Assembly (NCBI GenBank): GCA_964560475.1
Contig: CAZLMZ010000002.1
Span: 1 to 62,111, forward strand
Direction of reading: 5' to 3'
Length of the DNA stretch: 62,111 nt
DNA from: an uncultured Anaerolineae bacterium
GTDB lineage: Bacteria > Chloroflexota > Anaerolineae > JAFGEY01
Shown: positions 33,641-58,674 of the stretch, piece by piece
How the letters are laid out: the number at the start of each line of letters is the position of its first letter
Numbering within the stretch: the first letter of the stretch is position 1
Made by a program: the position numbers and the translations under genes
Notes under the pieces: model-generated
What the model was told of the DNA's origin: nothing
The model's input: the letters and a program-made list of their open reading frames with translations, nothing else
The model's database searches: none

Positions 33641-34678
33641 ATGAAGGCAGCACGACTATATGGTCCGCGCGACATGCGCGTCGACGATGTCCCTGTACCA
33701 ACGCCAGCACCCGGGCAGGTACTGCTGCAGGTCCTGTCGGTGGGCGTATGTGGTTCTGGTGTGCACTATTACATTGACGGCGGGATCGGCGACGACAAGG
33801 TGACAGAGCCTTTTGTCATCGGCCACGAGTTCTCGGCCCGTATCGCAGCGTTGGGCCCAGGAGTGGAGGGGCCGCCCGTTGGGACGCGTGTCGCCGTCGA
33901 GCCGGCCATCGCGTGTGGCAAGTGCGAGCTCTGTGAAGAGGGGCACCCAAACCTGTGCGAGAACATTCTCTTTTGCAGCACGCCGCCCACGCCAGGGGCG
34001 CTGCAAGAGTACATAGTGCACCCTGCGGAGTTGTGCTTTCCGCTGCCTGATGGCGTAAGCAATGACCAGGGGGCGATGTTGGAGCCGCTAGGCATTGCAC
34101 TGCACGCTGTGCGCCTAGCCAAGCTTCGACCTGGCGACACGGTCGCGGTCCTGGGGAGCGGCCCTGTCGGCTTGCTCACGCTGCAGGTGGCGCTCATCTC
34201 GGGCGCGCGCGCAGCGTGGGCCACGGACCTGATTCCGGAACGGTTGGCCATGGCAGAACAGCTCGGCGCCGAGGGTACGCTCAGGGCCGACAAGGCGGAT
34301 CCGGTGGCCTGGATCATGGAGCAAACCGGGGGCCGAGGCGTCGACGTGGCATTTGAGGCAGCATGGGCGGAGGAGACGGTCGCTCAGGCTGCCTACATGG
34401 TACGCAAGGGCGCCAAATTGCTCATGATTGGGATCCCTCGCGAGGATCAGGCCCTCTTTCCAGGGCACACTGTGCGCCGCAAAGGCCTCACGATCAAGTA
34501 CGTGCGGCGGATGAAGCACACCTATCCGCGCGCCATCGCCATGGTCAACGACGGCCTGATTGATGTGGACAGCCTCGTGACGCACCACTACCCGCTCGAG
34601 CGAGTGGCAGAGGCGTACGATCTCGTCGCTTCGCGGGAGGACGGTGTGATGAAGGTGATCGTCGAGGTCGGGAAGTGA
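33641..34678 (+). CDS. Zinc-dependent medium-chain dehydrogenase (sorbitol/threonine dehydrogenase-like)
   Basis: GHEFSARI, structural zinc CGKCELCEEGHPNLC, Rossmann motif VLGSGPVGL. Confidence 0.85.
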   Translation: MKAARLYGPRDMRVDDVPVPTPAPGQVLLQVLSVGVCGSGVHYYIDGGIGDDKVTEPFVIGHEFSARIAALGPGVEGPPVGTRVAVEPAIACGKCELCEEGHPNLCENILFCSTPPTPGALQEYIVHPAELCFPLPDGVSNDQGAMLEPLGIALHAVRLAKLRPGDTVAVLGSGPVGLLTLQVALISGARAAWATDLIPERLAMAEQLGAEGTLRADKADPVAWIMEQTGGRGVDVAFEAAWAEETVAQAAYMVRKGAKLLMIGIPREDQALFPGHTVRRKGLTIKYVRRMKHTYPRAIAMVNDGLIDVDSLVTHHYPLERVAEAYDLVASREDGVMKVIVEVGK

Positions 34679-35634
34679 TGTCTGTGCAGCTCCCCGGCTA
34701 CCTTGCGCTCTATCGGAGCGGGGAGCTCGAACGGCGTACGGAAGAGGCGTGGCGTTCGCTGTCGCACTGCGAGCTGTGCCCGCACCGCTGCGGCGTCGAT
34801 CGGCTGCACGGCGACCGAGGGCGCTGCCGTTCGCCAGCTATGCCTGTGGTAGCCAGCGCAAACCTGCATGCGTGGGAAGAGCCGCCGATCAGCGGCGCGC
34901 GCGGCTCGGGGACGATCTTTTTCAGCGGGTGCACGGGGCGCTGTCGCTTTTGCCAGAATTATCCGATCAGCCAGCTTGGTGTCGGGAGAGAGGTAAGCCT
35001 GGAGCAGTTGGCACAGATGATGGTCAGACTCCAGGACCGAGGCGCCCACAACATCAATTTCGTGACGCCGACGCACTATGTGGCAGCGATCCTTGCTGCG
35101 CTTCCGATCGCGGTCGAGCGTGGCCTCTGCATTCCGCTGCTCTACAACAGCAGCGGGTTCGAGCGAGTAGATACGCTCCGGTTGCTGGAGGGCGTGATCG
35201 ATATCTGGCTGCCAGATGCCAAGTATGCGAGCGAGAAGGTTGGGCGCTCGCTCTCTGGCTTTCCGGACTATCCGTCGCACAACCAACTGGCGCTGCGCGA
35301 GATGGTTCGCCAGGTTGGCGATCGCCTGGAGAGGGACCGGGAGGGCATTGCGCGGCGCGGGATGATCGTCCGGCACATGGTGCTGCCGCACGGGCTGGCC
35401 GGCAGCCGCGAGGTCTTGATCTGGATCGCGGCAAACCTGTCTCCGGAGGTGCACGTCAGCCTGATGTCGCAGTATTTCCCGGCGTATCGGTGCGTCAACG
35501 ACGATACCCTGGGGCGCAAGGTCACGGCTGAGGAATACGAGGAAGCGATCGCTGCCCTGGACGAGGCTGGGCTCGTGAACGGCTGGATCCAGGAGCAGGA
35601 CGAATGGGAAGTGGACGCGGAAACGGTCTTCTGA
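34678..35634 (+). CDS. Radical SAM protein (PflX-type putative activating enzyme)
   Basis: CxxxCxxC cluster GCTGRCRFCQN preceded by CELCPHRC. The start overlaps the dehydrogenase stop (GTGATG). Confidence 0.8.
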   Translation: MSVQLPGYLALYRSGELERRTEEAWRSLSHCELCPHRCGVDRLHGDRGRCRSPAMPVVASANLHAWEEPPISGARGSGTIFFSGCTGRCRFCQNYPISQLGVGREVSLEQLAQMMVRLQDRGAHNINFVTPTHYVAAILAALPIAVERGLCIPLLYNSSGFERVDTLRLLEGVIDIWLPDAKYASEKVGRSLSGFPDYPSHNQLALREMVRQVGDRLERDREGIARRGMIVRHMVLPHGLAGSREVLIWIAANLSPEVHVSLMSQYFPAYRCVNDDTLGRKVTAEEYEEAIAALDEAGLVNGWIQEQDEWEVDAETVF

Positions 35635-49216: not shown

Positions 49217-49245
49217 TTGTCTTTTCCCATAGGACGTGGTACAAT
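49217..49245 (+). promoter_or_regulatory. Promoter for flavin-reductase/GNAT/rtcA/rnz block (TTGTCT-17-TACAAT)
   Basis: ttgtcttttcccataggacgtggtacaat. Confidence 0.55.
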
Positions 49246-49299
49246 CCGTGCGCAGCGCTGGCTGCGCCGTTTGTCCTTACCCCTCAGGAGGGAGAGCGC

Positions 49300-49803
49300 A
49301 TGGCATTCAGGGAAGTGCCCTATACCCATCAACTCGACACAACGCTAGAGATGCTGGCCAATGGTGGGATACTGCTGGCCTCGACGCGCGAGGATGGCTC
49401 ATCGAACGTGATGACGATCGGCTGGGCGAGCGTCGGCGTCATCTGGGGCCTGCCGGTGATGGTCGTGTTGGTGCGCCCGTCACGCTACACCTACCAGTTC
49501 ATCGAGGCATCGCAGGCATTCACGGTCAACGTGCCCACGCGGGAGATGAGATCCTACGTGAACATGTGCGGGACCAAGAGCGGGCGGGATGTGAACAAGC
49601 TGGCAGAGGTCCCAACCTCAATGGGGCAGAAGGTAGAGGCGCTGGTTCTCGACGAGTGCCCGCTAGTGTACGAATGCAAGGTGGTGCACAGCAACGACGT
49701 GATCCCGGCGAATCTCGTGCCGGACGTCGCGCGTCGCTCGTATCCGCGGGGGGACTATCACCGCCTGTACTATGGGCACATCCTGGGTACATTCGCCAAG
49801 TGA
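49300..49803 (+). CDS. Flavin-reductase-like FMN-binding domain protein
   Basis: NVMTIGWASVGVIWGLPVMVVLVRPSRYTYQFI pattern. ATG 49300 follows AGGAGGGAG. Confidence 0.75.
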   Translation: MAFREVPYTHQLDTTLEMLANGGILLASTREDGSSNVMTIGWASVGVIWGLPVMVVLVRPSRYTYQFIEASQAFTVNVPTREMRSYVNMCGTKSGRDVNKLAEVPTSMGQKVEALVLDECPLVYECKVVHSNDVIPANLVPDVARRSYPRGDYHRLYYGHILGTFAK

Positions 49804-50555
49804 GCGATCCTTCAGCCGGGAAGGCCCAGCACGAGGGCCCGTCGTCGGGAGCCATCTCCTACAAGCGAGAGCTGATCCGCTCGCTTCTCGCTCCGGCAGA
49901 TCCTGCGGATGCAATGACGGCCTACTATGCGCTGTGGCACGATGCGCGACGGGTAAAGCTCACGCTGCATCGTGGCCCCACGGGCACGACAGACGGCTTT
50001 GTTGCGGTATGCCAGACCGGGCGGGATCTATTTGTGCCGCTGGTGGTCCTGCGAGCGCTGCCAGACGATGTGGGTGGCCTCTTGAAGAGCGCGCTGATAG
50101 CGGGGCGACCGTACACACTCGTCACCTCACCGGGCCTGCAGGACGCGGTCGAGGCGGCTCTGGTGCTGTCCAGCAGGCAGCGCAACGCAGTCTATGAGCT
50201 GGAGCCCGAGGTCTACCGGCCTGTGATCAACGTGATGGTACAGCCCGGAAAGGGCGCATTCCGGCACGAGATCCGCGTGCAGGACCAGGTCGTCGCGGCT
50301 GCCGGCGTGAACTGGCAGACGGACCGCTTTGCCGATATGTACGTGTATACCGATCCCGAGGTGCGAGGCAGGGGATGGGGCAAGGCGGTGGGTGCCGCAT
50401 GCGTACAGGATATCCTGTCTGCCAGGCTCCTGCCGCTGTATACGGTCGGAGAGGACAATGTGCCGTCGCAGCGTCTTGCCGAGTCGCTGGGGTTCAGGGA
50501 CAAGGGAGCCAGGGAGTTCGAGTGCCAGGGATACCTGTCGCCGGGGGACGAGTAG
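49800..50555 (+). CDS. GNAT-family N-acetyltransferase
   Basis: C-terminal acetyl-CoA motif VRGRGWGKAVGAACV and SQRLAESLGF. The start is uncertain: GTG 49800 overlapping the upstream stop, or ATG 49914. The upstream part of ORF 49236..50555 is rejected. Confidence 0.7.
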   Translation: MSDPSAGKAQHEGPSSGAISYKRELIRSLLAPADPADAMTAYYALWHDARRVKLTLHRGPTGTTDGFVAVCQTGRDLFVPLVVLRALPDDVGGLLKSALIAGRPYTLVTSPGLQDAVEAALVLSSRQRNAVYELEPEVYRPVINVMVQPGKGAFRHEIRVQDQVVAAAGVNWQTDRFADMYVYTDPEVRGRGWGKAVGAACVQDILSARLLPLYTVGEDNVPSQRLAESLGFRDKGAREFECQGYLSPGDE

Positions 50556-50561
50556 AAGCGA

Positions 50562-51596
50562 GTGATTGAGATTGACGGCGCATATGGTGAGGGCGGCGGG
50601 CAGCTCCTGAGAACGGCACTGTCCCTGGCGGCGGTGACCGGACAGGGATTCCATATCGAGCACCTACGCGCGCGGAGGCCCAAACCGGGACTGCGTCCCC
50701 AGCATCTTGCTGCTGTCCATGCCGTGGCGGAGCTGTGCGATGCTGAGGTAGAGGGCGCGGTGCTGAATTCGAGGACGCTCACGTTCGTGCCGCAATGCGC
50801 ACCGCGCACGGGGAGCTATCGATGGGATGTGGGGACGGCAGGGGCGACCACGCTCATCTTTCAAACGGTGCTGTGGCCACTCGCGCTGTCGGGCGAGCCC
50901 TCGTTCGTCGAGCTGATCGGTGGGACTCACGTAGCGTGGAGCCCGCCGGTCGACTATGTGCGGGAGGTGTATCTGCGGACACTGTCGGCCATCGCGAGCG
51001 GGGCAGTGGCGGAGGTCGACGCCGAGAGGTGGGGGTGGTACCCACGCGGAGGCGGGCTGCTGCGAGGTCAGATCCACGGCGGCGCCGCGCTCGACGGTCT
51101 CTCTCTGATGGAGCGTGGGTCACTGCGCGAGGTGTCGGTTCTCTCGGCTGCATCGAACCTCCCGCAGCACATTGTCGATCGCCAGGCGGCCCAGGCCGAT
51201 TTCTACCTGCGCAAGCAGGGGATCGTGGCGCGCATAGAGAAGGACGCGCCGCTGTCCCCAGGCCAGGGCACGGTGGTGTTCGTCCTGGCCGAGTATGAGC
51301 ACGCGCGGGCCGGCTTTGTTGCTTATGGCCGGATCCGCAGACCGGCCGAGGAAGTGGCCGAAGAAGCGTGTCGCGCCTTCGTGCGCTATCACAGGCACCG
51401 CCAGCCGGTAGACGAGCACCTGGCAGATCAGCTCCTCTTACCCCTGGCGCTGGCCCAAGGGGCGAGCGCGTACGCCGTCTCGGGTATCACGCAGCACCTC
51501 CTCACTAACGCGTGGCTGATCGGTCAGTTCCTGCCGGTCGAGATCCTGATCTCGGGCAAGGAGCGCAAGGCAGGAACTGTTGCGATCCAGGTCTAG
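50562..51596 (+). CDS. rtcA: RNA 3'-terminal phosphate cyclase
   Basis: IEIDGAYGEGGGQLLRTALSLAAVTGQGFHIEHLRARRPKPGLRPQHL closely parallels the RtcA N-terminus. Confidence 0.9.
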   Translation: MIEIDGAYGEGGGQLLRTALSLAAVTGQGFHIEHLRARRPKPGLRPQHLAAVHAVAELCDAEVEGAVLNSRTLTFVPQCAPRTGSYRWDVGTAGATTLIFQTVLWPLALSGEPSFVELIGGTHVAWSPPVDYVREVYLRTLSAIASGAVAEVDAERWGWYPRGGGLLRGQIHGGAALDGLSLMERGSLREVSVLSAASNLPQHIVDRQAAQADFYLRKQGIVARIEKDAPLSPGQGTVVFVLAEYEHARAGFVAYGRIRRPAEEVAEEACRAFVRYHRHRQPVDEHLADQLLLPLALAQGASAYAVSGITQHLLTNAWLIGQFLPVEILISGKERKAGTVAIQV

Positions 51597-51629
51597 CTGT
51601 GGCGACGAGCAAGGCAATAGGCAGGGTTG

Positions 51630-52574
51630 ATGTTTGAACTCGTTTTCCTGGGCACATCTGCATCCGCTCCATCGGTCCATCGCGGCCTCTCGTCGGCGAT
51701 GGTGTTGTACAAGGAGTACCGTTTTCTCGTGGACTGCGGCGAGGGCACCCAGCGGCAGTTGCTGTGCAGCGGGCTGGGCTTTCGTCGGCTAGACCGCATC
51801 CTGCTCACGCACGGGCACCTGGATCACATCCTTGGGTTGGGCGGGATCATGTCCACCTTTGGCCGGTGGGAGGCGATCGATCGGGTCGAGATCTGGGGCG
51901 GGCGATGGGCGCTGGATCGGGTCGAGAGGTTGATGGAGGTTGTTTTCGGGCCGAACCGGCGCCCGCTGGAGATCGAGCTGTACGACGTGGCGCCCGGCAC
52001 GTTGATGGAGGACGAGACCTTTACGCTGAGCGCCTTTCCAGTGGTGCACCGCGGCCCTGGTTGCTTCGGCTATACGTTCGAGGAAAAGTCACACCGGCCG
52101 TTCCTAGCAGAGAAAGCGGAGGCGATCGGCGTTCCTCGCGGCCCAGAGCGCGCGCTGCTGGTGCAGGGCGAGTCGGTCGTGCTGGCGGACGGGACGGTCG
52201 TACATCCAGATCAGGTGCTGGGGCCGGAGCAGGCGGGGGCGCGGCTCGTCTTTGTCGGGGACGCGGGCAGCACGGAGAGTCTGCACGATCTGGCGCGTGG
52301 TGCGGATGCATTGGTGATCGAAGCGACGTACCTGGAGCGAGAGCGCGATCTGGCGCGCAATTTCGGGCACCTGACCGCGCAGCAGTCAGCCGAGCTGGCG
52401 CGGGGCGCAGGCGTGGACGCGCTGATCCTGACCCACCTCTCGCGGCGCTATTTCGAGCGTGAGGTGCTCGAGGAGGCACAACGCGTGTTCGAGCGCACAT
52501 TCGTTGCGCGTGATTTCGACCGGTTCCAGGTGGCGAAAGGGGGCGAGGTAAGGCTAGTGCGCGAGCCAGGATAG
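51630..52574 (+). CDS. rnz: Ribonuclease Z (tRNA 3' endonuclease)
   Basis: [40 protein letters not shown] (HxHxDH), C-terminal [10 protein letters not shown]. Confidence 0.88.
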
Positions 52575-52601
52575 GCCCTGCTCGTGCGCTAGCAGCGGCA
52601 C

Positions 52602-54650
52602 ATGCAAGAGCGGAAGCGAATGCCGGCCAAGAAACAGAGACGTATTGCAGTGCAGAGTGCGGCAGCGGTGCAGGCTGGACGCGAGCGAGCTGCGCGGATC
52701 CGTGCCTGGCGCGGATGGGCCTTCGTGGCGGGGGTCCTCGTGCTCGCGCTCGTGCTGCGGGCAGCGAACCTGACCGCGCAGAGCCTGTGGGCTGACGAGG
52801 GGAACAGCGTGCGGGTGACGGAGCGGCCACTGGAGTTGGTCATTGACGCGGCACGCGCTGACGTGCACCCCCCTGGGTATTACGTGCTCCTATGGGGATG
52901 GGTTAAGGTCTTTGGCCAGAGCGAGGCTGCCGTCCGTGCCTTGTCCGTCGTGGTGGGCGTAGCCCTGGTGGGCCTGGTCTATCTGCTTGGGGGCCGGATC
53001 TGGGGAGCACGTGCGGGCTGGTTGGCGGCGTTCTGTGCGGCTGTATCGCCGTTCCAGGTGCAGTACTCGCAAGAAGTGCGCATGTATATCCTGGTCGCGT
53101 TCCTCGGTGCACTGGCGGTCTATGCCTTAGTGCGGTGGATAGATGCGTTTGTGCGTGAGGATCACCCGAGCCTGGCCTGGTCCGGCACCTATGTCGTGGC
53201 GAGCGCCGCCGGACTGTGGGTGCATTATATGTTCCCGATCGTCATTGCCTCGGTCAGCGTGGCCTGGCTGGCGTGGTGGCTCGGACGAGGGCCGGAGCGC
53301 AAGAAGACTCGCATCGCACTGTGGTGGGTCGGCATGCATGCGGCCATCCTCGTGTTGTATCTGCCCTGGCTGCCGGTGGCCTGGCATAGGATCACCGCCT
53401 ACGGCCCAATCAGCGGGGCGTACACGGTGGGGTTCGTGGTCGAGCAGTGGCTGCGGATGCTCAGCGTCGGAGAGACCGCGCCGAGCGGTGACTTGACGCG
53501 GTGGATCGTGCTCGGCTGCACAGTCCTGGCGATCCTGGGCGCGTGGGCCGGGCTTGTGGGTTTTGGCGAACGAGCGGCCAACCGCAGGCGCGGTGCGGCG
53601 ACGCTTGGCCTCGTCGCGCTCGCCCTCGCCCCGGCAGTCACGATGGCTGCGCTGGCCGCTACCGGGCGCCCTGCCTACAGGCCCAAGTTCTACCTCGTCG
53701 CCAGCCCTGCATTCGCACTGCTGATGGGGGGCGGCATTGCACGCCTTGAGCGATCGAGCGGGATGCAGAGAAGCCTCGCGAACCGCCTGTGGCTGCTGCT
53801 CTGCCTAGGCCTGGTTGCCGTTGGGGCTGTACGTTCACTGCGGAACTACTATCTAGATCCTGCCTATGCGCGCAGTGATTATCGCGCGATCGCCGCCGAT
53901 ATCGCCGCCGCGGCGCAAGAGGACGATGTCATCTTGTTGAATGCGCCGAATCAGTGGGAAGTGTTCACCTACTACTACCGCGATGGCGTCCCAGTGTACC
54001 CCCTTCCTCGCTCGCGTCCGCCAGTCGAGGCGGAGCTGGTGACCGAGCTTCAGTCGATCGCAGCGCAGCACGACCTGCTGTACGCAGTGTTGTGGGCGGA
54101 GCAGGAGAGCGATCCAGAGCGGATCGTGGAGCGGTGGCTCGCGTCGAATGCATACAAGGCCAGTGAGACGTGGTACGGCGATGTACGGTTGGCCGTGTAT
54201 GGTCTGCCGGTTGCGGAAGAGACGCCCGCGCTAACACGTGCGCTCGACGACGTGCGCTTTGGCGAGGAGATTGCACTGCGAGGCTATCTCATCGAGCCGG
54301 CACAGGTGCAGGCGGGCGACGTCATTCGTGTAGCATTATCCTGGGAGGCTCTGGCAACGCCCAGCGGGCGCTACAAGGTTTTCCTTCACCTGGTTGGGCC
54401 AGATGGCGAGATCGCTGCCCAGGTGGATACCGAGCCGGGAGACGGGATGGACCTGACGACCGCGTGGCAGCCCGGTCGGGGCGTGATCGAGGACCGCTAC
54501 GGCCTGCTCGTGCCGCTCGGGGCGCCCAGGGGAACTTATCAGATCCTGGTGGGCCTGTACGACGTGAGTGGCGCGCCACGTTTGCCCTTGAGCGTAGATG
54601 GTCAGCCTGCGGGCGATGCGCTGACGCTCGGCACGGTGACGGTCGGGTGA
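52602..54650 (+). CDS. GT39/ArnT-like membrane glycosyltransferase with C-terminal ~132-aa beta-rich domain
   Basis: SLWADEGNSV and HPPGYYVLLW motifs, ~12 TM helices. The C-terminal soluble domain is colinear with the C-terminus of the kinase at 8165..10129. Confidence 0.8.
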   Translation: MQERKRMPAKKQRRIAVQSAAAVQAGRERAARIRAWRGWAFVAGVLVLALVLRAANLTAQSLWADEGNSVRVTERPLELVIDAARADVHPPGYYVLLWGWVKVFGQSEAAVRALSVVVGVALVGLVYLLGGRIWGARAGWLAAFCAAVSPFQVQYSQEVRMYILVAFLGALAVYALVRWIDAFVREDHPSLAWSGTYVVASAAGLWVHYMFPIVIASVSVAWLAWWLGRGPERKKTRIALWWVGMHAAILVLYLPWLPVAWHRITAYGPISGAYTVGFVVEQWLRMLSVGETAPSGDLTRWIVLGCTVLAILGAWAGLVGFGERAANRRRGAATLGLVALALAPAVTMAALAATGRPAYRPKFYLVASPAFALLMGGGIARLERSSGMQRSLANRLWLLLCLGLVAVGAVRSLRNYYLDPAYARSDYRAIAADIAAAAQEDDVILLNAPNQWEVFTYYYRDGVPVYPLPRSRPPVEAELVTELQSIAAQHDLLYAVLWAEQESDPERIVERWLASNAYKASETWYGDVRLAVYGLPVAEETPALTRALDDVRFGEEIALRGYLIEPAQVQAGDVIRVALSWEALATPSGRYKVFLHLVGPDGEIAAQVDTEPGDGMDLTTAWQPGRGVIEDRYGLLVPLGAPRGTYQILVGLYDVSGAPRLPLSVDGQPAGDALTLGTVTVG

Positions 54651-54684
54651 TGGCGGCAGGCAGGGCAGTGAGGAGGGAGTCGGG

Positions 54685-55041
54685 ATGATCACGCCTGCTG
54701 GCAAAGAGTGCAAATTCTACTACGAGGACTTTAACCGGGGCCGAGAGGTGCAAGAGTGCCGCTTGATCGCCCAGAACCCGCACTCGGCGCCGTGGCGTCC
54801 TCGCCTGTGCAATACGTGTCCCGTGCCGGACATCCTCCGGGCCAATGCCTGCCCGAATATGGTGCTGGAGGGCTGGGTCGCGCGGCAGTGGCTCGTGGTG
54901 AGGCAGGTCAAAGTGCGTGCCTACTGCACAGAGACGCGCCAGTACGTCGAGGACCCGTATACTGGCTGCGGAGAGTGCCACGGGACACAGTGGCGCGAGA
55001 CGGTGGGTGGATCCACCCAGGGACCCGATTTAGGAGGCTGA
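54685..55041 (+). CDS. Small Cys-rich hypothetical protein (8 Cys)
   Basis: 118 aa with Cys pairs CNTC and CGEC plus four more Cys. Good spacing to neighbours. No family recognised. Confidence 0.5.
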   Translation: MITPAGKECKFYYEDFNRGREVQECRLIAQNPHSAPWRPRLCNTCPVPDILRANACPNMVLEGWVARQWLVVRQVKVRAYCTETRQYVEDPYTGCGECHGTQWRETVGGSTQGPDLGG

Positions 55042-55131
55042 ATCCGTGACGATTTGCCTCAAACAGGGTTTCAATATGTGGAGCAATCTGGTAGCCCGGG
55101 GTACGAACGAACTCTTGTAGGGGAAAGCAAA

Positions 55132-55965
55132 ATGGCCTTCTCGGGGAAATACGCGATCGTGACCGGCGGCTCGAGCGGCATCGGGCGGGCGACGGCACAT
55201 CTCCTGGCTCAGCGAGGAGCGCACGTCTCGATCATTGCGCGCTCACAGGCTCCTCTCGACGAGACGCTCGGTGAGCTCGATGCGCTGCGCGTCAATGCGG
55301 AGCAGCAATTCCGCGCCGTGTCTGCCGATCTGGGGGACTGGCCGGAGGCGCGTGACGCGATCGCGGCGTTGAGTTCGAATGGTCGCGTGCCCGACTTGCT
55401 GATCAACGCGGCCGGATACTGTCATCCGGGCTATTTCGAGGAACTTGCTGTTGACGTGTTCCACGATTCGATGCGGGTCGACTTTTTCGGGACGCTTCAC
55501 CCGACCAAGGCGGTGACGCCGCTGATGATCGCGCGGGGCCAGGGGCATATCGTCAACTTTTCCTCGATCGCAGGCTTTTTTGGACTATATGGCTTCGCAG
55601 CGTACAGCGCAGCCAAGTACGCGATCACAGGTTTCTCCGAGGTTCTACGGCAGGAGCTCAAACCGTATGGCATCGATGTTTCGATCGTGTTTCCCCCGAC
55701 GACCCGTACGCCAGGGCTAGAGCGCGAGAACCGGCTCAAACCACTGGAAACGACGCTCCTCGAAGGGCAGAGCAAGGAGCGCTCGCCAGAGGAAGTGGCA
55801 GAAGCCGTGCTGCGTGGAGTCGAGCGCAGGAACAGGTATATCTTGCCGGGGGCGGATACCAAGCTGTACTTTCTCTTCGCCCATCTACCTCCCCGGCTCA
55901 TGCGCGTCTTTGAGTACTGGTTAGTCGACCGTGTGATCGCCAAAGCACAACGGATACAGCAGTAG
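55132..55965 (+). CDS. SDR-family 3-ketodihydrosphingosine-reductase-like protein
   Basis: TGGSSGIGRA. FSSIAGFFGLYGFAAYSAAKYAITGF (S...YxxxK). FPPTTRTPGLERENRLKPLET closely parallels my recollection of KDSR/FVT1 ([21 protein letters not shown]). Hydrophobic C-terminal tail. Confidence 0.75.
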   Translation: MAFSGKYAIVTGGSSGIGRATAHLLAQRGAHVSIIARSQAPLDETLGELDALRVNAEQQFRAVSADLGDWPEARDAIAALSSNGRVPDLLINAAGYCHPGYFEELAVDVFHDSMRVDFFGTLHPTKAVTPLMIARGQGHIVNFSSIAGFFGLYGFAAYSAAKYAITGFSEVLRQELKPYGIDVSIVFPPTTRTPGLERENRLKPLETTLLEGQSKERSPEEVAEAVLRGVERRNRYILPGADTKLYFLFAHLPPRLMRVFEYWLVDRVIAKAQRIQQ

Positions 55966-56037
55966 CCGTCCTCACTCGTACTCCCCTGGGCAATACAGGG
56001 GCGATGTCAACCAGAGAAAGGTGGGTGGATAGGAATC

Positions 56038-57219
56038 GTGGAACTCTTTCAAAAGTGCTACAAGTTTACGCGGGCCCGGGAAGCGATGGAGACAGGCGAC
56101 TATCCGTATTTCATCCCGCTTTCCGACACCGAGGGTACAGAAGTCACAATCGATGGTCGAAAGCTGATCATGATCGGCTCGAACAACTACCTGGGGCTGA
56201 CCACCCATCCCAAGGTGCGGGAGGCGGCGATCGAAGCAGTACGCCAGTATGGTACGAGCTGTACGGGGTCTCGTTTTCTCAACGGCTCGCTGCGACTCCA
56301 CAACCAGTTGGAGGAGGAACTGGCAGATTTCGTCGGCAAGGAAGCAGCCGTAGTGTTCAGCACCGGGTACCAGGTGAACGTGGGCACGATCTCGGCGCTC
56401 GTGGGGCGGGGCGACGTGGTGATCACCGACAAGGAGGACCACGCCAGCATCATCGATGGTTGCCAGATGGCTCTCGGCGAAATGCTCCGCTTCCGGCACA
56501 GCGATATGAATAGCCTGGAGCGGGCGCTCTCGCGGTGCGAGCCAGATCAGGGCAAGCTGGTGGTGATAGATGGTGTGTACAGCATGGGCGGCGACATTGC
56601 GCCGCTGCCGGATATTGTCCCGCTGTGCCAAAAGTATGGCGCCCGGTTGATGGTGGACGACGCCCATGCTGTCGGTGTGCTCGGAGACTGCGGGCGGGGG
56701 ACGCCCGACTACTATGGGGTAACCGATGGCGTCGATCTAATCATGGGCACCTTTTCCAAGTCGTTTGCGTCGTTGGGAGGGTTTCTAGCAGGCGACGACG
56801 CGGTGATCCACTATGTGCAGCACCATGCCCGCTCCTTGATCTTTAGTGCCTCGATGCCTGCGGCGAACGTGGCGGCCTGCCTGGCCGCGCTCGACATCAT
56901 GCGCAGTGATCCGGGGCTCTCGCAGCGGGTGTGCGACATCGCGGCGCGTATGCGCGAGGGCTATCAGGCGCTGGGCTACAACACCGGTGCGAGCGAGACG
57001 CCGGTGGTGCCAATCATTATCGGGGACGACGACAAGACGTTCATGATGTGGCGTGCGCTCTTTGACGCCGGGGTATACACCAACCCCGTGATCCCGCCTG
57101 CCGTTCCGCCGAGCAAGTCGCTGCTGCGGACGAGTTATATGGCGACGCACACGGATGAGCAGATGGAACGGGTGCTCGGCCTGTTCGAGCAGGTGGGCAA
57201 GCAGGTCGGGGCGATCTAG
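56038..57219 (+). CDS. PLP-dependent alpha-oxoamine synthase, serine-palmitoyltransferase-like
   Basis: GSNNYLGL, GSRFLNGS, VFSTGYQVNVG, DHASIIDG, RFRHSDMNSLERAL, VVIDGVYSMGGDIAPL, DDAHAVG, GTFSKS (PLP Lys), LLRTSYMATHT. Confidence 0.8.
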   Translation: MELFQKCYKFTRAREAMETGDYPYFIPLSDTEGTEVTIDGRKLIMIGSNNYLGLTTHPKVREAAIEAVRQYGTSCTGSRFLNGSLRLHNQLEEELADFVGKEAAVVFSTGYQVNVGTISALVGRGDVVITDKEDHASIIDGCQMALGEMLRFRHSDMNSLERALSRCEPDQGKLVVIDGVYSMGGDIAPLPDIVPLCQKYGARLMVDDAHAVGVLGDCGRGTPDYYGVTDGVDLIMGTFSKSFASLGGFLAGDDAVIHYVQHHARSLIFSASMPAANVAACLAALDIMRSDPGLSQRVCDIAARMREGYQALGYNTGASETPVVPIIIGDDDKTFMMWRALFDAGVYTNPVIPPAVPPSKSLLRTSYMATHTDEQMERVLGLFEQVGKQVGAI

Positions 57220-57235
57220 CCGATACGAGCTCATT

Positions 57236-57267
57236 ACAGGGCCGCCAAAGCTTCTTGGCGGCCCTGT
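57236..57267 (+). terminator. Intrinsic terminator after the SPT-like gene
   Basis: Perfect 13-bp stem ACAGGGCCGCCAA / TTGGCGGCCCTGT with a 6-nt loop, followed by GTTTTA. Confidence 0.75.
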
Positions 57268-57270
57268 GTT

Positions 57271-58593
57271 TTACTGTCCTACCTTGGGCATGTCCCGGAG
57301 GGCTTCATAGGCTGGCTTGAGGCTGGCTTCCGGGTAGCCGGGGTAGGTGATCGCCCACCAGTATTCCTCTCGCTCCTCCGTCCAGTCCGAGTCAGCGATA
57401 TAGATCGTGCTCATCAAGGCAATCCAGGGCTGCCAGTGCTGCGCGGCATACTGGTAGGCACGCACCAAGTAGTCGGCCTGCTGTTCCAGTGTCACGGCGT
57501 GCCAGGAATAGCTGGGGTGGATGGTGTCTGTGGTCCAACCGAACTCGAGCAGCACCACGCGGCGCGCGCCATCGCCGTGCTGTTCCATGATCGCGCGCAG
57601 GTCCTCGACGTGGCGGAAGCAGAAGGTCCGATCCCCTCCATAGTCTTCATTTGCGGCGACTTCGTCGGGTGAGATCTCGGGCGGAGCCTTGTAGCCGGCG
57701 GCGTGCATGCCGACCATGTCGGCATAGTTCTGGAACCCTGCCTGGTACATGCGCTGCAAATAGTCCGCGTCGGGCATGACCTCGTCGTTCCAAATGCCTG
57801 TCGGGCTGAGACCTGCGCTGACCACGATCGCATCGGGGTCCGCCTCCTTGATGCGGCGGTAGGCGATGCTGAGCAGACGGGTGTACTCTTCCGGGCTAGG
57901 AGGCTGACCGCCCCATTCGCGCGCCAGATTAGGCTCGTTCCAGATCTGGTATGCGGCAATGCGTCCACGATAGCGCTCTGCCATAGCATAGCAAAAGTCC
58001 CCAAAGTCGTCATAGTTCTGCGGCGGCCCGTTCGGCGCGCCTGCACCGGTCCAGGCCGGCGCGCGGTCCAGGCGCGCGATGAGCTTGATCCCGGCCTCCT
58101 GGGCGTGCTGGACGACGCCGTCCGCTTGCGTCCAGTTAAAATGGTCCTTGGCTGCGCCCTCGATGTCGGACCAGGCAAAGACCTGCTTGACCCAGCGAAA
58201 GCCCATATCGCGGATTAGCCCCAGGTCGCGCGACGCCACTTCGGGCCGCCACCATAGGAAGGCCTGGATGCCATAGTCCGGAGAGGTCATCGCGACCGGG
58301 CCCTGCTCTGCTGTCGGCGTAGGCGTCGGGCTGGGCAGCTCCGTTGGCGAAGGGGCTGGAGTTGGCGTGCTGGTCGCGTCCGGTGTGAACGTCGGGACGA
58401 CGGGCGTCGCCGTGGACGTCGCCGTCGGTACCGTCTGTGGCTGAGCTGTCGACGTCGCTTGCTGGTTCCACGGGACGGGCGTCGGTACGCTGGGTTCCTG
58501 GCGCTGGCAGGCTGCGCCCGCGAGGACGATTGCGATCAGGCAGGTAGCCAGCAGTGCGTAGCGGCAGTGAGCCGCATTGCGCAATGGATTCAT
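57271..58593 (-). CDS. Secreted/lipoprotein glycoside hydrolase, clan GH-A (GH5-like)
   Basis: Signal with LAGAAC lipobox and a Pro/Thr linker. Acid/base region YQIWNEPN and nucleophile region LLEFGW. Paralogous to the C-terminus of the next gene. Confidence 0.7.
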   Translation of the reverse strand: MNPLRNAAHCRYALLATCLIAIVLAGAACQRQEPSVPTPVPWNQQATSTAQPQTVPTATSTATPVVPTFTPDATSTPTPAPSPTELPSPTPTPTAEQGPVAMTSPDYGIQAFLWWRPEVASRDLGLIRDMGFRWVKQVFAWSDIEGAAKDHFNWTQADGVVQHAQEAGIKLIARLDRAPAWTGAGAPNGPPQNYDDFGDFCYAMAERYRGRIAAYQIWNEPNLAREWGGQPPSPEEYTRLLSIAYRRIKEADPDAIVVSAGLSPTGIWNDEVMPDADYLQRMYQAGFQNYADMVGMHAAGYKAPPEISPDEVAANEDYGGDRTFCFRHVEDLRAIMEQHGDGARRVVLLEFGWTTDTIHPSYSWHAVTLEQQADYLVRAYQYAAQHWQPWIALMSTIYIADSDWTEEREEYWWAITYPGYPEASLKPAYEALRDMPKVGQ

Positions 58594-58674
58594 GTTTCCG
58601 TATCCCCCGTATGTCGTCAAGCAAAGGAGCACGGACCAGTGTCCGTGCTCCTCACCTGCAGCCATGATATGGCC

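Follow-up and report, generated by a model that had tools for sequence, protein, structure and literature searches.

Sphingolipids were long thought to be rare in bacteria, and metagenomics now predicts them for about 40 phyla, a prediction that rests almost wholly on the first enzyme of the pathway. Which enzyme, outside Caulobacter and Bacteroides, reduces the 3-keto group that this first enzyme leaves behind is the question raised by a locus in a stretch of 62,111 nucleotides (nt) from an uncultured bacterium of the class Anaerolineae, phylum Chloroflexota (contig CAZLMZ010000002.1; the whole stretch is referred to as the window). The locus holds a gene for a short-chain dehydrogenase/reductase (SDR) that resembles eukaryotic 3-ketodihydrosphingosine reductase (KDSR), directly upstream of a gene for an alpha-oxoamine synthase (AOS) that resembles serine palmitoyltransferase (SPT). 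Chloroflexota are among the most abundant phyla of anoxic sediments, and for them the locus offers a testable answer: judged from the two protein sequences, it is likely that the genes form a module for the synthesis of a sphingoid long-chain base, in which serine and an acyl-thioester would be converted to 3-ketosphinganine and then to sphinganine. Both open reading frames (ORFs) given in a preliminary description of this DNA are present on the + strand, 72 nt apart. The features of the locus are (lengths of proteins in amino acids, aa):

55132..55965, + strand: SDR gene, KDSR-like, predicted NADPH-dependent 3-ketosphinganine (3-ketodihydrosphingosine) reductase; ATG start, 277 aa.
55966..56037, + strand: spacer between the SDR and synthase genes; 72 nt, with the Shine-Dalgarno-like AAAGGTGG.
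56038..57219, + strand: synthase gene, SPT-like AOS dependent on pyridoxal phosphate (PLP), predicted to make 3-ketosphinganine; GTG start, 393 aa.
57235..57268, + strand: intrinsic-terminator-like hairpin; 14 base pairs (9 G-C) and a 6-nt loop, followed by GTTTTAC.

The motifs quoted in the preliminary description, GSRFLNGS, VFSTGYQVNVG, GTFSKS and LLRTSYMATHT for the synthase and the loop FPPTTRTPGLERENRLKPLET for the SDR, were all found in the translations. The GTG of the synthase is the earliest start codon past the upstream in-frame stop, and the alignment of Sphingobacterium multivorum SPT (SmSPT) to the synthase opens at residue 3-4.

The family of the synthase was assessed with profile models, solved structures and phylogeny. 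The Pfam model PF00155 (Aminotran_1_2, class I/II aminotransferase) covers the full protein (195 bits, residues 42-380). With the SPT equivalog models of NCBIfam (NF047600, NF047599 and NF047603) the scores were 521 bits for SPT-CFB (cut-off 640), 422 bits for the beta-proteobacterial SPT (cut-off 500) and 348 bits for the alpha-proteobacterial SPT (cut-off 670). The other NCBIfam models gave 387 bits for bioF (cut-off 426), 384 bits for a BioF/Kbl-related subfamily, 355 and 298 bits for two KBL models (cut-offs 460 and 493), 253 bits for ALAS and 210 bits for CqsA, and no curated cut-off was reached by the synthase with any NCBIfam model. Two members of the same clade that come from ceramide-type gene clusters (L009 and L061 in our numbering of loci) also score below the SPT-CFB cut-off, at 536 and 567 bits. 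The models are lineage-specific, and the sub-cut-off SPT scores read as a position outside the curated lineages rather than as another function. Among the solved structures in the PDB the ten best matches are all SPTs, with SmSPT first at 397 bits, against 273 bits for the dual BioF/KBL enzyme of Thermus, 250 bits for KBL, 246 bits for cysteate acyltransferase and 229 bits for BioF. Sequence identity is 46.5% to SmSPT and about 40% to two Sphingomonas SPTs, and 33.8% and 32.2% to Escherichia coli Kbl and BioF, respectively.

An exact look-up of the window synthase in the contig index gave no match, and relatives were used in its place. For the phylogeny, a sample of loci was seeded with the synthase, using one genome per species, which yielded 82 related loci (30 in a Chloroflexota clade and 52 from other phyla). 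The window protein was aligned with these 82 relatives, three validated SPTs and E. coli Kbl and BioF, and a neighbour-joining tree was calculated (60 bootstrap replicates; Kbl and BioF are the only two non-SPT outgroups). The window protein falls in the clade of 30 loci, 28 of which are named Chloroflexota or one of its classes. This clade nests in a larger one that contains SmSPT and from which the alpha-proteobacterial SPT, Kbl and BioF are excluded in 58 of the 60 replicates; all SPTs jointly exclude Kbl and BioF in 53 of 60. The closest named homolog (97% identity) comes from a metagenome-assembled genome (MAG) labelled 'Anaerolineae bacterium', and many Anaerolineae MAGs encode the synthase at 75-99% identity. 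Most of its homologs carry the JGI label 8-amino-7-oxononanoate synthase.

The residues around PLP and L-serine have been named in a crystallographic study of SmSPT (PMC10196870), and these positions were mapped onto the window synthase. All 20 are compatible and 18 are identical; the two that differ, F114 to Y and M271 to I, carry the same residue as the SPT of S. paucimobilis. Residues K241, H135, D207 and H210 align with K244, H138, D210 and H213 of SmSPT, and likewise with Kbl and BioF. The three validated SPTs differ from Kbl and BioF in three features, for each of which the window synthase has the SPT variant: the GSRxLN loop (G77-S78-R79-F80-L81-N82, or GSRFLN; Kbl has SVRFIC here, BioF GSGHVS), the residue that precedes the catalytic Lys (Ser, S240, as in the validated SPTs, but Gly in Kbl and BioF) and the position of SmSPT Ala274 (A271, which is Asn in Kbl and Thr in BioF). 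Across the 82 relatives the G, S, R and N of the loop, the Ser and the Ala are invariant; the loop Leu varies in two of them, and the x position is free. The network that holds the serine hydroxyl in SmSPT (Asn52, Gly80 and Ser243) is kept as N49, G77 and S240. Overall, the synthase is most likely SPT-like and is predicted to be a serine palmitoyltransferase. That it tracks SPT rather than BioF or KBL had been proposed from a handful of motifs; the proposal stands, since SPT models and SPT structures give the best matches (also over ALAS, CqsA and cysteate acyltransferase), the protein nests with validated SPTs to the exclusion of Kbl and BioF, and the discriminating active-site positions carry the residues of an SPT.

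The SDR matches the Pfam family adh_short with 161 bits and reaches the cut-off of no NCBIfam model. Near-colinearity with the eukaryotic reductase, noted earlier, was borne out with the authentic human sequence (KDSR_HUMAN / NP_002026.1, verified by exact look-up): BLASTP aligned the two proteins over 243 aa at 37% identity (174 bits, E = 5e-57), the only gap being one residue long, against 82 bits for E. coli FabG. Among 382 SDR matches in the PDB the best solved relative is TSC10 of Cryptococcus (8jat), with 101 bits versus 95 for the next and with 30% identity. TSC10, of which the solved chain has 275 residues, is matched over its residues 8-237, and the alignment extends past the generic SDR core into a loop (PGLERENRLKPLET / PGFDAENRTKPAVT). 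This substrate loop, which follows beta-6 and is of the type PPxTxTPG...ENRxKPxET, reads FPPTTRTPGLERENRLKPLET in the window and PGFDAENRTKPAVT in TSC10 and is common to human KDSR. In the 30 members of the SDR family that were aligned, the loop positions P188, P189, T191, T193, P194, E199, P204 and E206 are invariant, as are the cofactor motif T11-G12-G13-S14-S15-G16-I17-G18 (TGGSSGIG), R37, N92, S144, Y158 and K162. The cofactor motif, R37 and the N-S-Y-K tetrad align with human KDSR; Arg37, which follows beta-2, occupies the NADPH-type position and is Arg in the human enzyme as well. The JGI pipeline labels many members of the family 3-dehydrosphinganine reductase.

A tree was calculated for 85 SDRs (60 bootstrap replicates), including human KDSR, TSC10, FabG-type sequences and a 367-aa SDR from a 'metagenome' entry (L119, 5809-6912). 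The latter has an N-terminal extension, is 46% identical to human KDSR and lies among genes with JmjC, DUF3752 and PRPP synthetase domains; the contig is evidently eukaryotic, and the protein was used as an extra eukaryotic reference. Human KDSR, TSC10 and L119 were placed inside the clade spanned by the SPT-adjacent bacterial SDRs, with moderate support (45 of 60 replicates), and the FabG-type sequences fell outside this clade; the window SDR thus groups with the human and fungal enzymes. The structure predicted by AlphaFold2 (AF2; predicted local distance difference test, pLDDT, 88) retrieves HSD17B13, actKR, FabG and 11beta-HSD1 as the top Foldseek matches, SDR folds being too alike to discriminate. 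The 'hydrophobic tail' of the preliminary description was overstated: the C-terminal tail consists of two moderately hydrophobic/amphipathic helices, the maximal 19-residue Kyte-Doolittle mean is 0.77, and no transmembrane anchor is predicted. Through these two helices the SDR probably binds the membrane peripherally. Overall, the SDR is most likely KDSR-like, a predicted 3-ketosphinganine reductase.

The linkage of the two genes was determined in two samples. In the synthase-seeded sample, 7 of the 30 loci in the Chloroflexota clade have a KDSR-like SDR gene immediately upstream of the synthase gene, and 2 others have one about 2 kb upstream; none of the 52 loci belonging to other phyla has such a gene next to the synthase. 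Three loci with 95% synthase identity (L086, L087 and L088) have the pair together with the same neighbours as the window. At L089 (79% synthase identity) the SDR is again directly upstream of the synthase and every flanking gene is different. In the synthase tree, the pair-bearing loci are divided between two distinct subclades of Chloroflexota. The second sample was an independent draw from metagenomes by SDR motifs, in which SDRs with at least 140 bits against human KDSR were counted as KDSR-like. A synthase was found within about 200 nt of 8 of the 32 KDSR-like SDRs, many of which have no flanking sequence at all, and of 0 of the 42 others (Fisher p = 7e-4). In both samples, all SDRs encoded directly beside such a synthase reach 145-215 bits with human KDSR, roughly double their respective scores with FabG. 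Hence the coupling is a property of the KDSR-like subfamily of SDRs in particular, and it survives rearranged surroundings.

A Shine-Dalgarno-like, purine-rich GGGGAAAG is present at 55120-55127, 5' of the SDR start, and a second one, AAAGGTGG, at 56017-56024, 13 nt 5' of the synthase GTG. A terminator-like site was looked for in the spacer between the genes and was not found, and the folding energy of this spacer is no better than that of shuffled sequences (z = 0.02); the two genes are thus probably co-transcribed. Neither the spacer upstream of the SDR nor the one between the genes matches an Rfam family, shows unusual structure or folds better than its shuffles. No sigma-70-type promoter was found at the spacers, the consensus saying little for this phylum. 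The pair may also share a transcript with the same-strand genes upstream (gaps of 7-91 nt). Fifteen bases past the synthase stop begins the hairpin at 57235-57268, for which a perfect 13-bp stem had been reported; 13 perfect Watson-Crick pairs were indeed found, plus one G-T pair. Its energy is -29 kcal/mol (z = -5.6 versus shuffles), and none of 200 shuffles folds as well. The hairpin lies 3 nt from the 3' end of a convergent gene (57271-58665), and because of this proximity it may terminate both the gene pair and that gene. A match to the nhaA-I riboswitch motif at 57170-57246 (+), which reaches from the 3' end of the synthase gene into the terminator stem, stays below threshold (24.5 bits versus a gathering score of 37, E = 0.05) and is most likely a chance match that results from the GC-rich hairpin.

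The wider context of the synthase clade was obtained by clustering the ORFs within 6 kb of the 82 synthases. A protein of about 370 aa with a C-terminal GNAT domain is encoded directly downstream on the same strand in 47 of the loci, and an extended SDR of about 330 aa, of the epimerase / 3-beta-HSD / NAD_binding (NDUFA9-type) kind, is directly adjacent in 27. That the 47-locus neighbour might be the zinc-dependent alcohol dehydrogenase (Zn-ADH) gene seen beside the synthase at L002 was considered and rejected, as the clustering showed GNAT. The GNAT partner has no NCBIfam model and no relative in the PDB; for the epimerase-like partner the best NCBIfam match is HpnA-like (151 versus 368 bits), and the PDB gives only generic epimerases. 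From the description by Ding et al. these two partners would be the equivalents of the bacterial ceramide synthase bCerS and the reductase CerR. Two Anaerolineae loci (L009, 5009-9179, and L025, 5022-9179) carry a tight cluster of four genes with the same orientation, which runs from the KDSR-like SDR through the GNAT protein (about 377 aa) and the epimerase/NDUFA9-type protein to the synthase. Loci from Thermodesulfobacteriota have the order epimerase-like gene, synthase, GNAT, followed by a convergent gene for a PAP2_3 membrane protein. The latter was found in 11 Thermodesulfobacteriota loci (L049, L054, L056, L057, L060-L062, L065, L074, L078 and L080), about 1.0-1.2 kb downstream on the opposite strand; it weakly matches phosphoinositol dihydroceramide synthase (NF052609, 28 bits) and is a candidate ceramide head-group transferase. 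No bioA, bioB, acyl carrier protein (ACP) gene or genuine tdh is linked to the synthase in any of the 82 loci, and a biotin reading of the synthase was discarded on the lack of bioA, bioB and ACP genes.

A number of loci depart from these arrangements. At L002 (3679-16061) a synthase 74% identical to that of the window ends a fatty-acid cluster with genes for biotin carboxylase, biotin carboxyl carrier protein (BCCP), NMO/FabK-like protein, FabG, FabF and FabH; it overlaps by 4 nt the gene for a 406-aa zinc-dependent dehydrogenase, after which come two ABC exporter genes. This Zn-ADH may act as the reductase in the L002 lineage. At L093 (21-2683) a 589-aa fusion of an ACP (phosphopantetheine-binding) domain with an AOS is followed, 71 nt past its stop, by the gene of a KDSR-like SDR with 43.6% identity to human KDSR. 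The fusion scores best with the bioF model (357 bits; SPT-CFB 325 bits), its other neighbours are DUF1802 and DUF561 genes, and it represents a different, possibly carrier-protein-dependent long-chain-base architecture. Eight loci named Anaerolineales or uncultured Chloroflexia (L014, L016, L017, L019, L020, L027, L028 and L034) have an AlaXM-like alanyl-tRNA editing gene downstream on the same strand, and seven of them also a major facilitator superfamily (MFS) transporter.

The catalytic steps and products proposed for the module build on the anatomy, family placement and linkage observed above. The synthase would carry PLP on Lys241, with His135 stacked on the ring, Asp207 at N1 and His210 at O3'. 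By homology, it would condense L-serine with a long-chain acyl-thioester, with loss of CO2, to give 3-ketosphinganine. Since neither a dedicated ACP nor an acyl-ACP synthetase is linked to the gene, acyl-CoA is the probable donor, as it is for the Sphingobacterium-type enzyme. Homology and gene linkage suggest that the SDR would then reduce the C3 keto group with NADPH to yield sphinganine; it would use the N92-S144-Y158-K162 tetrad and Arg37 as human KDSR does and would probably act at the membrane surface. This order, in which reduction comes first, is that of eukaryotes and Bacteroides. A third step is speculative, and the window has no gene for it: an N-acyltransferase from elsewhere in the genome might convert sphinganine to dihydroceramide, and head groups may follow. 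A candidate for this activity is the GNAT protein whose gene lies between those of the SDR and synthase types in L009 and L025.

Several points weigh against a sphinganine-forming module. The synthase remains below the SPT-CFB equivalog cut-off (521 versus 640 bits), as do all members of its clade that were tested, and neither amino-acid nor acyl-chain specificity can be read from sequence. SPTs accept Ala and Gly as well, at low efficiency (PMC10196870), and a Nostoc protein annotated as SPT was inactive and made no 3-ketosphinganine (PMC8895605); that protein groups with BioF, which the window synthase does not. The Foldseek search with the SDR model did not return TSC10 (8jat) among the top 50. 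The SDR also lacks the transmembrane segments of eukaryotic KDSR (the N-terminal segment of the human enzyme has a hydropathy of 2.87, on the scale used above), although such an anchor is a trait of the enzymes of the eukaryotic endoplasmic reticulum and is not required for catalysis. Since several unrelated SDRs of Bacteroidota can perform this reduction (PMC11211663), the phylogeny of the SDR alone is a weak predictor of its function. The nearest relatives in the genome set, L001 and L004, have an epimerase-like gene and not an SDR gene beside the synthase, and L009 and L025 carry both types of reductase, which makes the division of labour ambiguous. No N-acyltransferase was found in the 62-kb window, and a literature search gave no biochemical or lipid evidence for the protein, the organism or any cultured Chloroflexota.

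The order of reactions could be another one, in which N-acylation comes first as in Caulobacter and the SDR reduces 3-oxo-ceramide, or the SDR could share the task with an epimerase-like reductase from another part of the genome. GNAT and epimerase/NDUFA9-type proteins are the most frequent partners of the synthase clade, SDR, GNAT, epimerase-like and synthase genes stand together in L009 and L025, the epimerase-like gene takes the place of the adjacent SDR in L001 and L004, and deletion of CerR in Caulobacter leads to accumulation of oxidised ceramide (PMC11087976). We nevertheless consider this order unlikely: the SDR is a close homolog of two enzymes that act on the free 3-keto base, human KDSR (37%) and TSC10, the window, L089 and seven other loci have the pair with no acyltransferase between or beside the genes, and there is a bacterial precedent for reduction first (PMC9278070). 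The amino acid, too, could be a different one. With Ala, Gly or cysteate in place of serine the pair would make 1-deoxy-sphingoid or capnine-type sulfonolipid bases, and the SDR would be a reductase of 3-ketocapnine or 3-keto-deoxysphinganine. KDSR-type SDRs, including Tsc10p, reduce 3-ketocapnine also (PMC11211663), the low-efficiency use of Ala and Gly by SPT has been mentioned, anoxic waters are rich in 1-deoxyceramides and sulfated forms (PMC11334938), and cysteate acyltransferases are recognisable relatives of the synthase. The score of 246 bits for the latter is, however, to be compared with 397 bits for SPT; the contacts to the serine hydroxyl (N49, G77 and S240) are all kept, no cysteate synthase gene is found nearby, and Ding et al. 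tied Anaerolineae to ordinary ceramides and not to 1-deoxy forms (PMC11334938). Another amino acid is thus quite unlikely in our estimate.

The JGI label on most homologs, a bioF score (387 bits) not far under its cut-off (426) and the overlap of the L002 synthase with a Zn-ADH gene in kbl-tdh order would suit a housekeeping BioF or KBL that has an unrelated SDR for a neighbour. This is extremely improbable, as the protein reaches neither cut-off and scores 134-166 bits higher with the SPT model, is 32-34% identical to these enzymes against 46.5% to SmSPT, is separated from Kbl and BioF in the tree, and differs from both in the GSRFLN loop and the Ser before the Lys; moreover, none of the 82 loci has a linked bioA, bioB or true tdh, and the linkage of SDR and synthase is statistically specific. 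AOS and ketoreductase pairs are also known from specialised metabolism, the fumonisin proteins Fum8/Fum13 following this logic, and the window pair might by analogy make a specialised long-chain amino-alcohol, a signal or toxin, as in fumonisin-type or polyketide-derived routes. Sphingolipids of Pseudomonas derived from a polyketide synthase are, by its title, the subject of PMC12134224. The window has no ceramide synthase-like gene, and the ACP-AOS fusion with its KDSR-like SDR at L093 is nearer to assembly-line chemistry. No polyketide synthase (PKS), nonribosomal peptide synthetase (NRPS), ACP or tailoring gene was found in the window, though, identities of 75-99% across many Anaerolineae MAGs are as expected for core lipid metabolism, and relatives link the genes to GNAT and head-group-type enzymes; a specialised product is accordingly very unlikely. 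The module for a sphingoid base thus remains the reading that we prefer. A bolder version of it would take the bacterial SDRs as true orthologs of eukaryotic KDSR, because the human and fungal enzymes nest inside the clade of bacterial SPT-linked SDRs, and a reduce-first pathway of eukaryotic style, run from a dedicated SPT-KDSR operon, as a core trait of the phylum. We find this doubtful. If it were true, the eukaryotic KDSR step would originate among bacteria of this kind, sphingolipids would be a bulk membrane lipid of Chloroflexota, which to our knowledge lack a classical outer membrane with lipopolysaccharide (LPS), and the KDSR-type and CerR-type reductases of L009 and L025 would have distinct roles.

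The surroundings of the pair in the window were analysed as well. Seven successive + strand genes span 49236-57219, with gaps of only 7-91 nt, in the order small FR47/GNAT acetyltransferase, RtcA RNA cyclase, metallo-beta-lactamase-fold protein, PMT_2 glycosyltransferase, a small ORF with eight Cys codons, SDR and synthase. This order is kept in L086 (95% synthase identity) and not in L089. The acetyltransferase forms the C-terminal part of ORF 49236-50555 and is unrelated by BLAST to the GNAT partner family of about 370 aa. The two immediate neighbours had been described correctly: a PMT_2/GT39-like membrane protein is encoded at 52602-54650, and the ORF at 54685-55041 (+) specifies 118 aa with Cys at 9, 25, 42, 45, 56, 81, 95 and 98. 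The latter has no Pfam or NCBIfam match. It is found in L086 and L087 with 83% identity and all eight Cys kept, between the PMT_2 gene and the SDR gene, and is absent from all more distant SDR-synthase loci; it probably is a real small metal-binding protein. Both the PMT_2 glycosyltransferase and the 8-Cys ORF were rejected as parts of the module, since only relatives with 95% synthase identity have them beside the pair, and neither occurs at L089 or any other locus.

The preliminary description had also stated that no ceramide synthase or ACP gene is adjacent to the pair, which extends to the window as a whole: no ceramide synthase-like or ACP gene is present, nor a CerR-like or PAP2 gene, relatives of the GNAT, epimerase-like and PAP2 partner families being absent from the 62 kb by tblastn (E <= 1e-3). 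The window likewise has no bioB and no convincing bioA. The annotated genes between 18 and 50 kb are housekeeping or unrelated. A zinc-dependent dehydrogenase gene that starts at 33641 (+) encodes 345 aa with 31% identity to E. coli Tdh, and its score with the TDH model is 210 bits (cut-off 458); a radical-SAM gene comes next and overlaps it by 4 nt (both within 33641-35634, +). A Kbl-Tdh reading was considered for these Zn-ADH genes and rejected, as the protein of L002 scores 130 bits (TDH cut-offs 380-458) and that of the window, with its 210 bits, is encoded 21 kb from the synthase.

The enzymes, the pathway and the prediction for the phylum are already known. The preliminary description held that sphingolipid synthesis is not an established trait of Chloroflexota, which needs correction: in the Black Sea, Ding et al. 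(2024) detected Spt-like genes in 218 MAGs assigned to Chloroflexota, named Anaerolineae as potential producers, a role for which the phylum had not been identified earlier, and found that Anaerolineae with Spt-like genes correlate with ceramides, glycosyl-ceramides and lysine-ceramides in the deep Black Sea (PMC11334938). The JGI label of the SDR family, given above, also predates our analysis. In the same work the co-localisation of Spt, bCerS and CerR was used to delimit a clade B of Spt-like proteins (PMC11334938), and a follow-up in 2025 repeats the prediction for Chloroflexota and asks for culture work (PMC12619533). KDSR is mentioned in neither paper (PMC11334938, PMC12619533), and in our literature search no description of a Chloroflexota SPT-KDSR gene pair was found. 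Two things appear to be new: that the two genes form a conserved, linked module in which the KDSR is eukaryote-like, and that in some lineages this module occurs alongside CerR-like and GNAT genes. If the prediction is true, the SDR would provide a second genetic marker, beside Spt, for assigning environmental ceramides to their producers, a soluble and easily expressed KDSR homolog for structural work, and a data point on the source of the eukaryotic KDSR step; the four-gene clusters would be a natural system in which to ask why both types of reductase are kept.

The pair can be compared with several known systems. The synthase has the fold and PLP chemistry of Kbl-Tdh and BioF, as well as their catalytic Lys, His and Asp, but these enzymes lie outside its clade at 32-34% identity, have another loop and a Gly before the Lys, and the window has no linked tdh or bio genes. 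The sulfonolipid pathway, with cysteate fatty-acyltransferase and 3-ketocapnine reductase, follows the same two-step logic with the same enzyme families; its reductases are scattered in the genome and 21-27% identical to Tsc10p (PMC11211663). Ceramide genes of the Caulobacter type comprise Spt, the N-acyltransferase bCerS and the NDUFA9-like reductase CerR (PMC11087976, PMC11324152), together with AcpR and AasR. The first enzyme belongs to the same family, and a layout that would correspond to it, with the synthase beside GNAT and epimerase/NDUFA9-type proteins, is seen in other phyla and in L009 and L025. The window differs in having no such GNAT, epimerase-like reductase, ACP or acyl-ACP synthetase, and the presence of a classical KDSR-type SDR as the reductase implies that acylation would come second. 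Caulobacter does acylate first, as the preliminary description had it, but its route is not the only one known in bacteria, since BT_0972 of Bacteroides reduces before acylation (PMC9278070).

S. multivorum SPT (3a2b, 8guh), a soluble homodimer of the CFB type, is collinear with the synthase over residues 3-389, with no internal gaps in the first 300; the two have the same length, and neither has a membrane domain. The organisms belong to different phyla, the SPT-CFB score of the synthase lies below the cut-off of that lineage, and the function of the window protein is predicted. In Sphingobacterium and Bacteroides the SPT gene is not beside the reductase gene, in contrast to the window, where the two are adjacent (PMC9278070). 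Human KDSR/FVT1 and fungal Tsc10 are classical SDRs with TGGSSGIG, Arg after beta-2, the N-S-Y-K tetrad and a PPxTxTPG...ENRxKPLET loop, and they fall in the same clade as the window SDR; the latter differs in being of the cytoplasmic type, in having neither N- nor C-terminal transmembrane segments and in being encoded beside an SPT. The proven bacterial example of a reduce-first route, with NADPH, is that of Bacteroides thetaiotaomicron, with BT_0870 as CFB-type SPT and BT_0972, an SDR, as KDSR (PMC9278070), and the window pair is predicted to perform the same two steps with the same enzyme families. BT_0972 is unlinked to the SPT gene and about 16-30% identical to yeast/human KDSR according to PMC9278070, whereas the window SDR lies adjacent to its synthase and, at 37% identity, is far more like the human enzyme than this one proven bacterial KDSR is reported to be.

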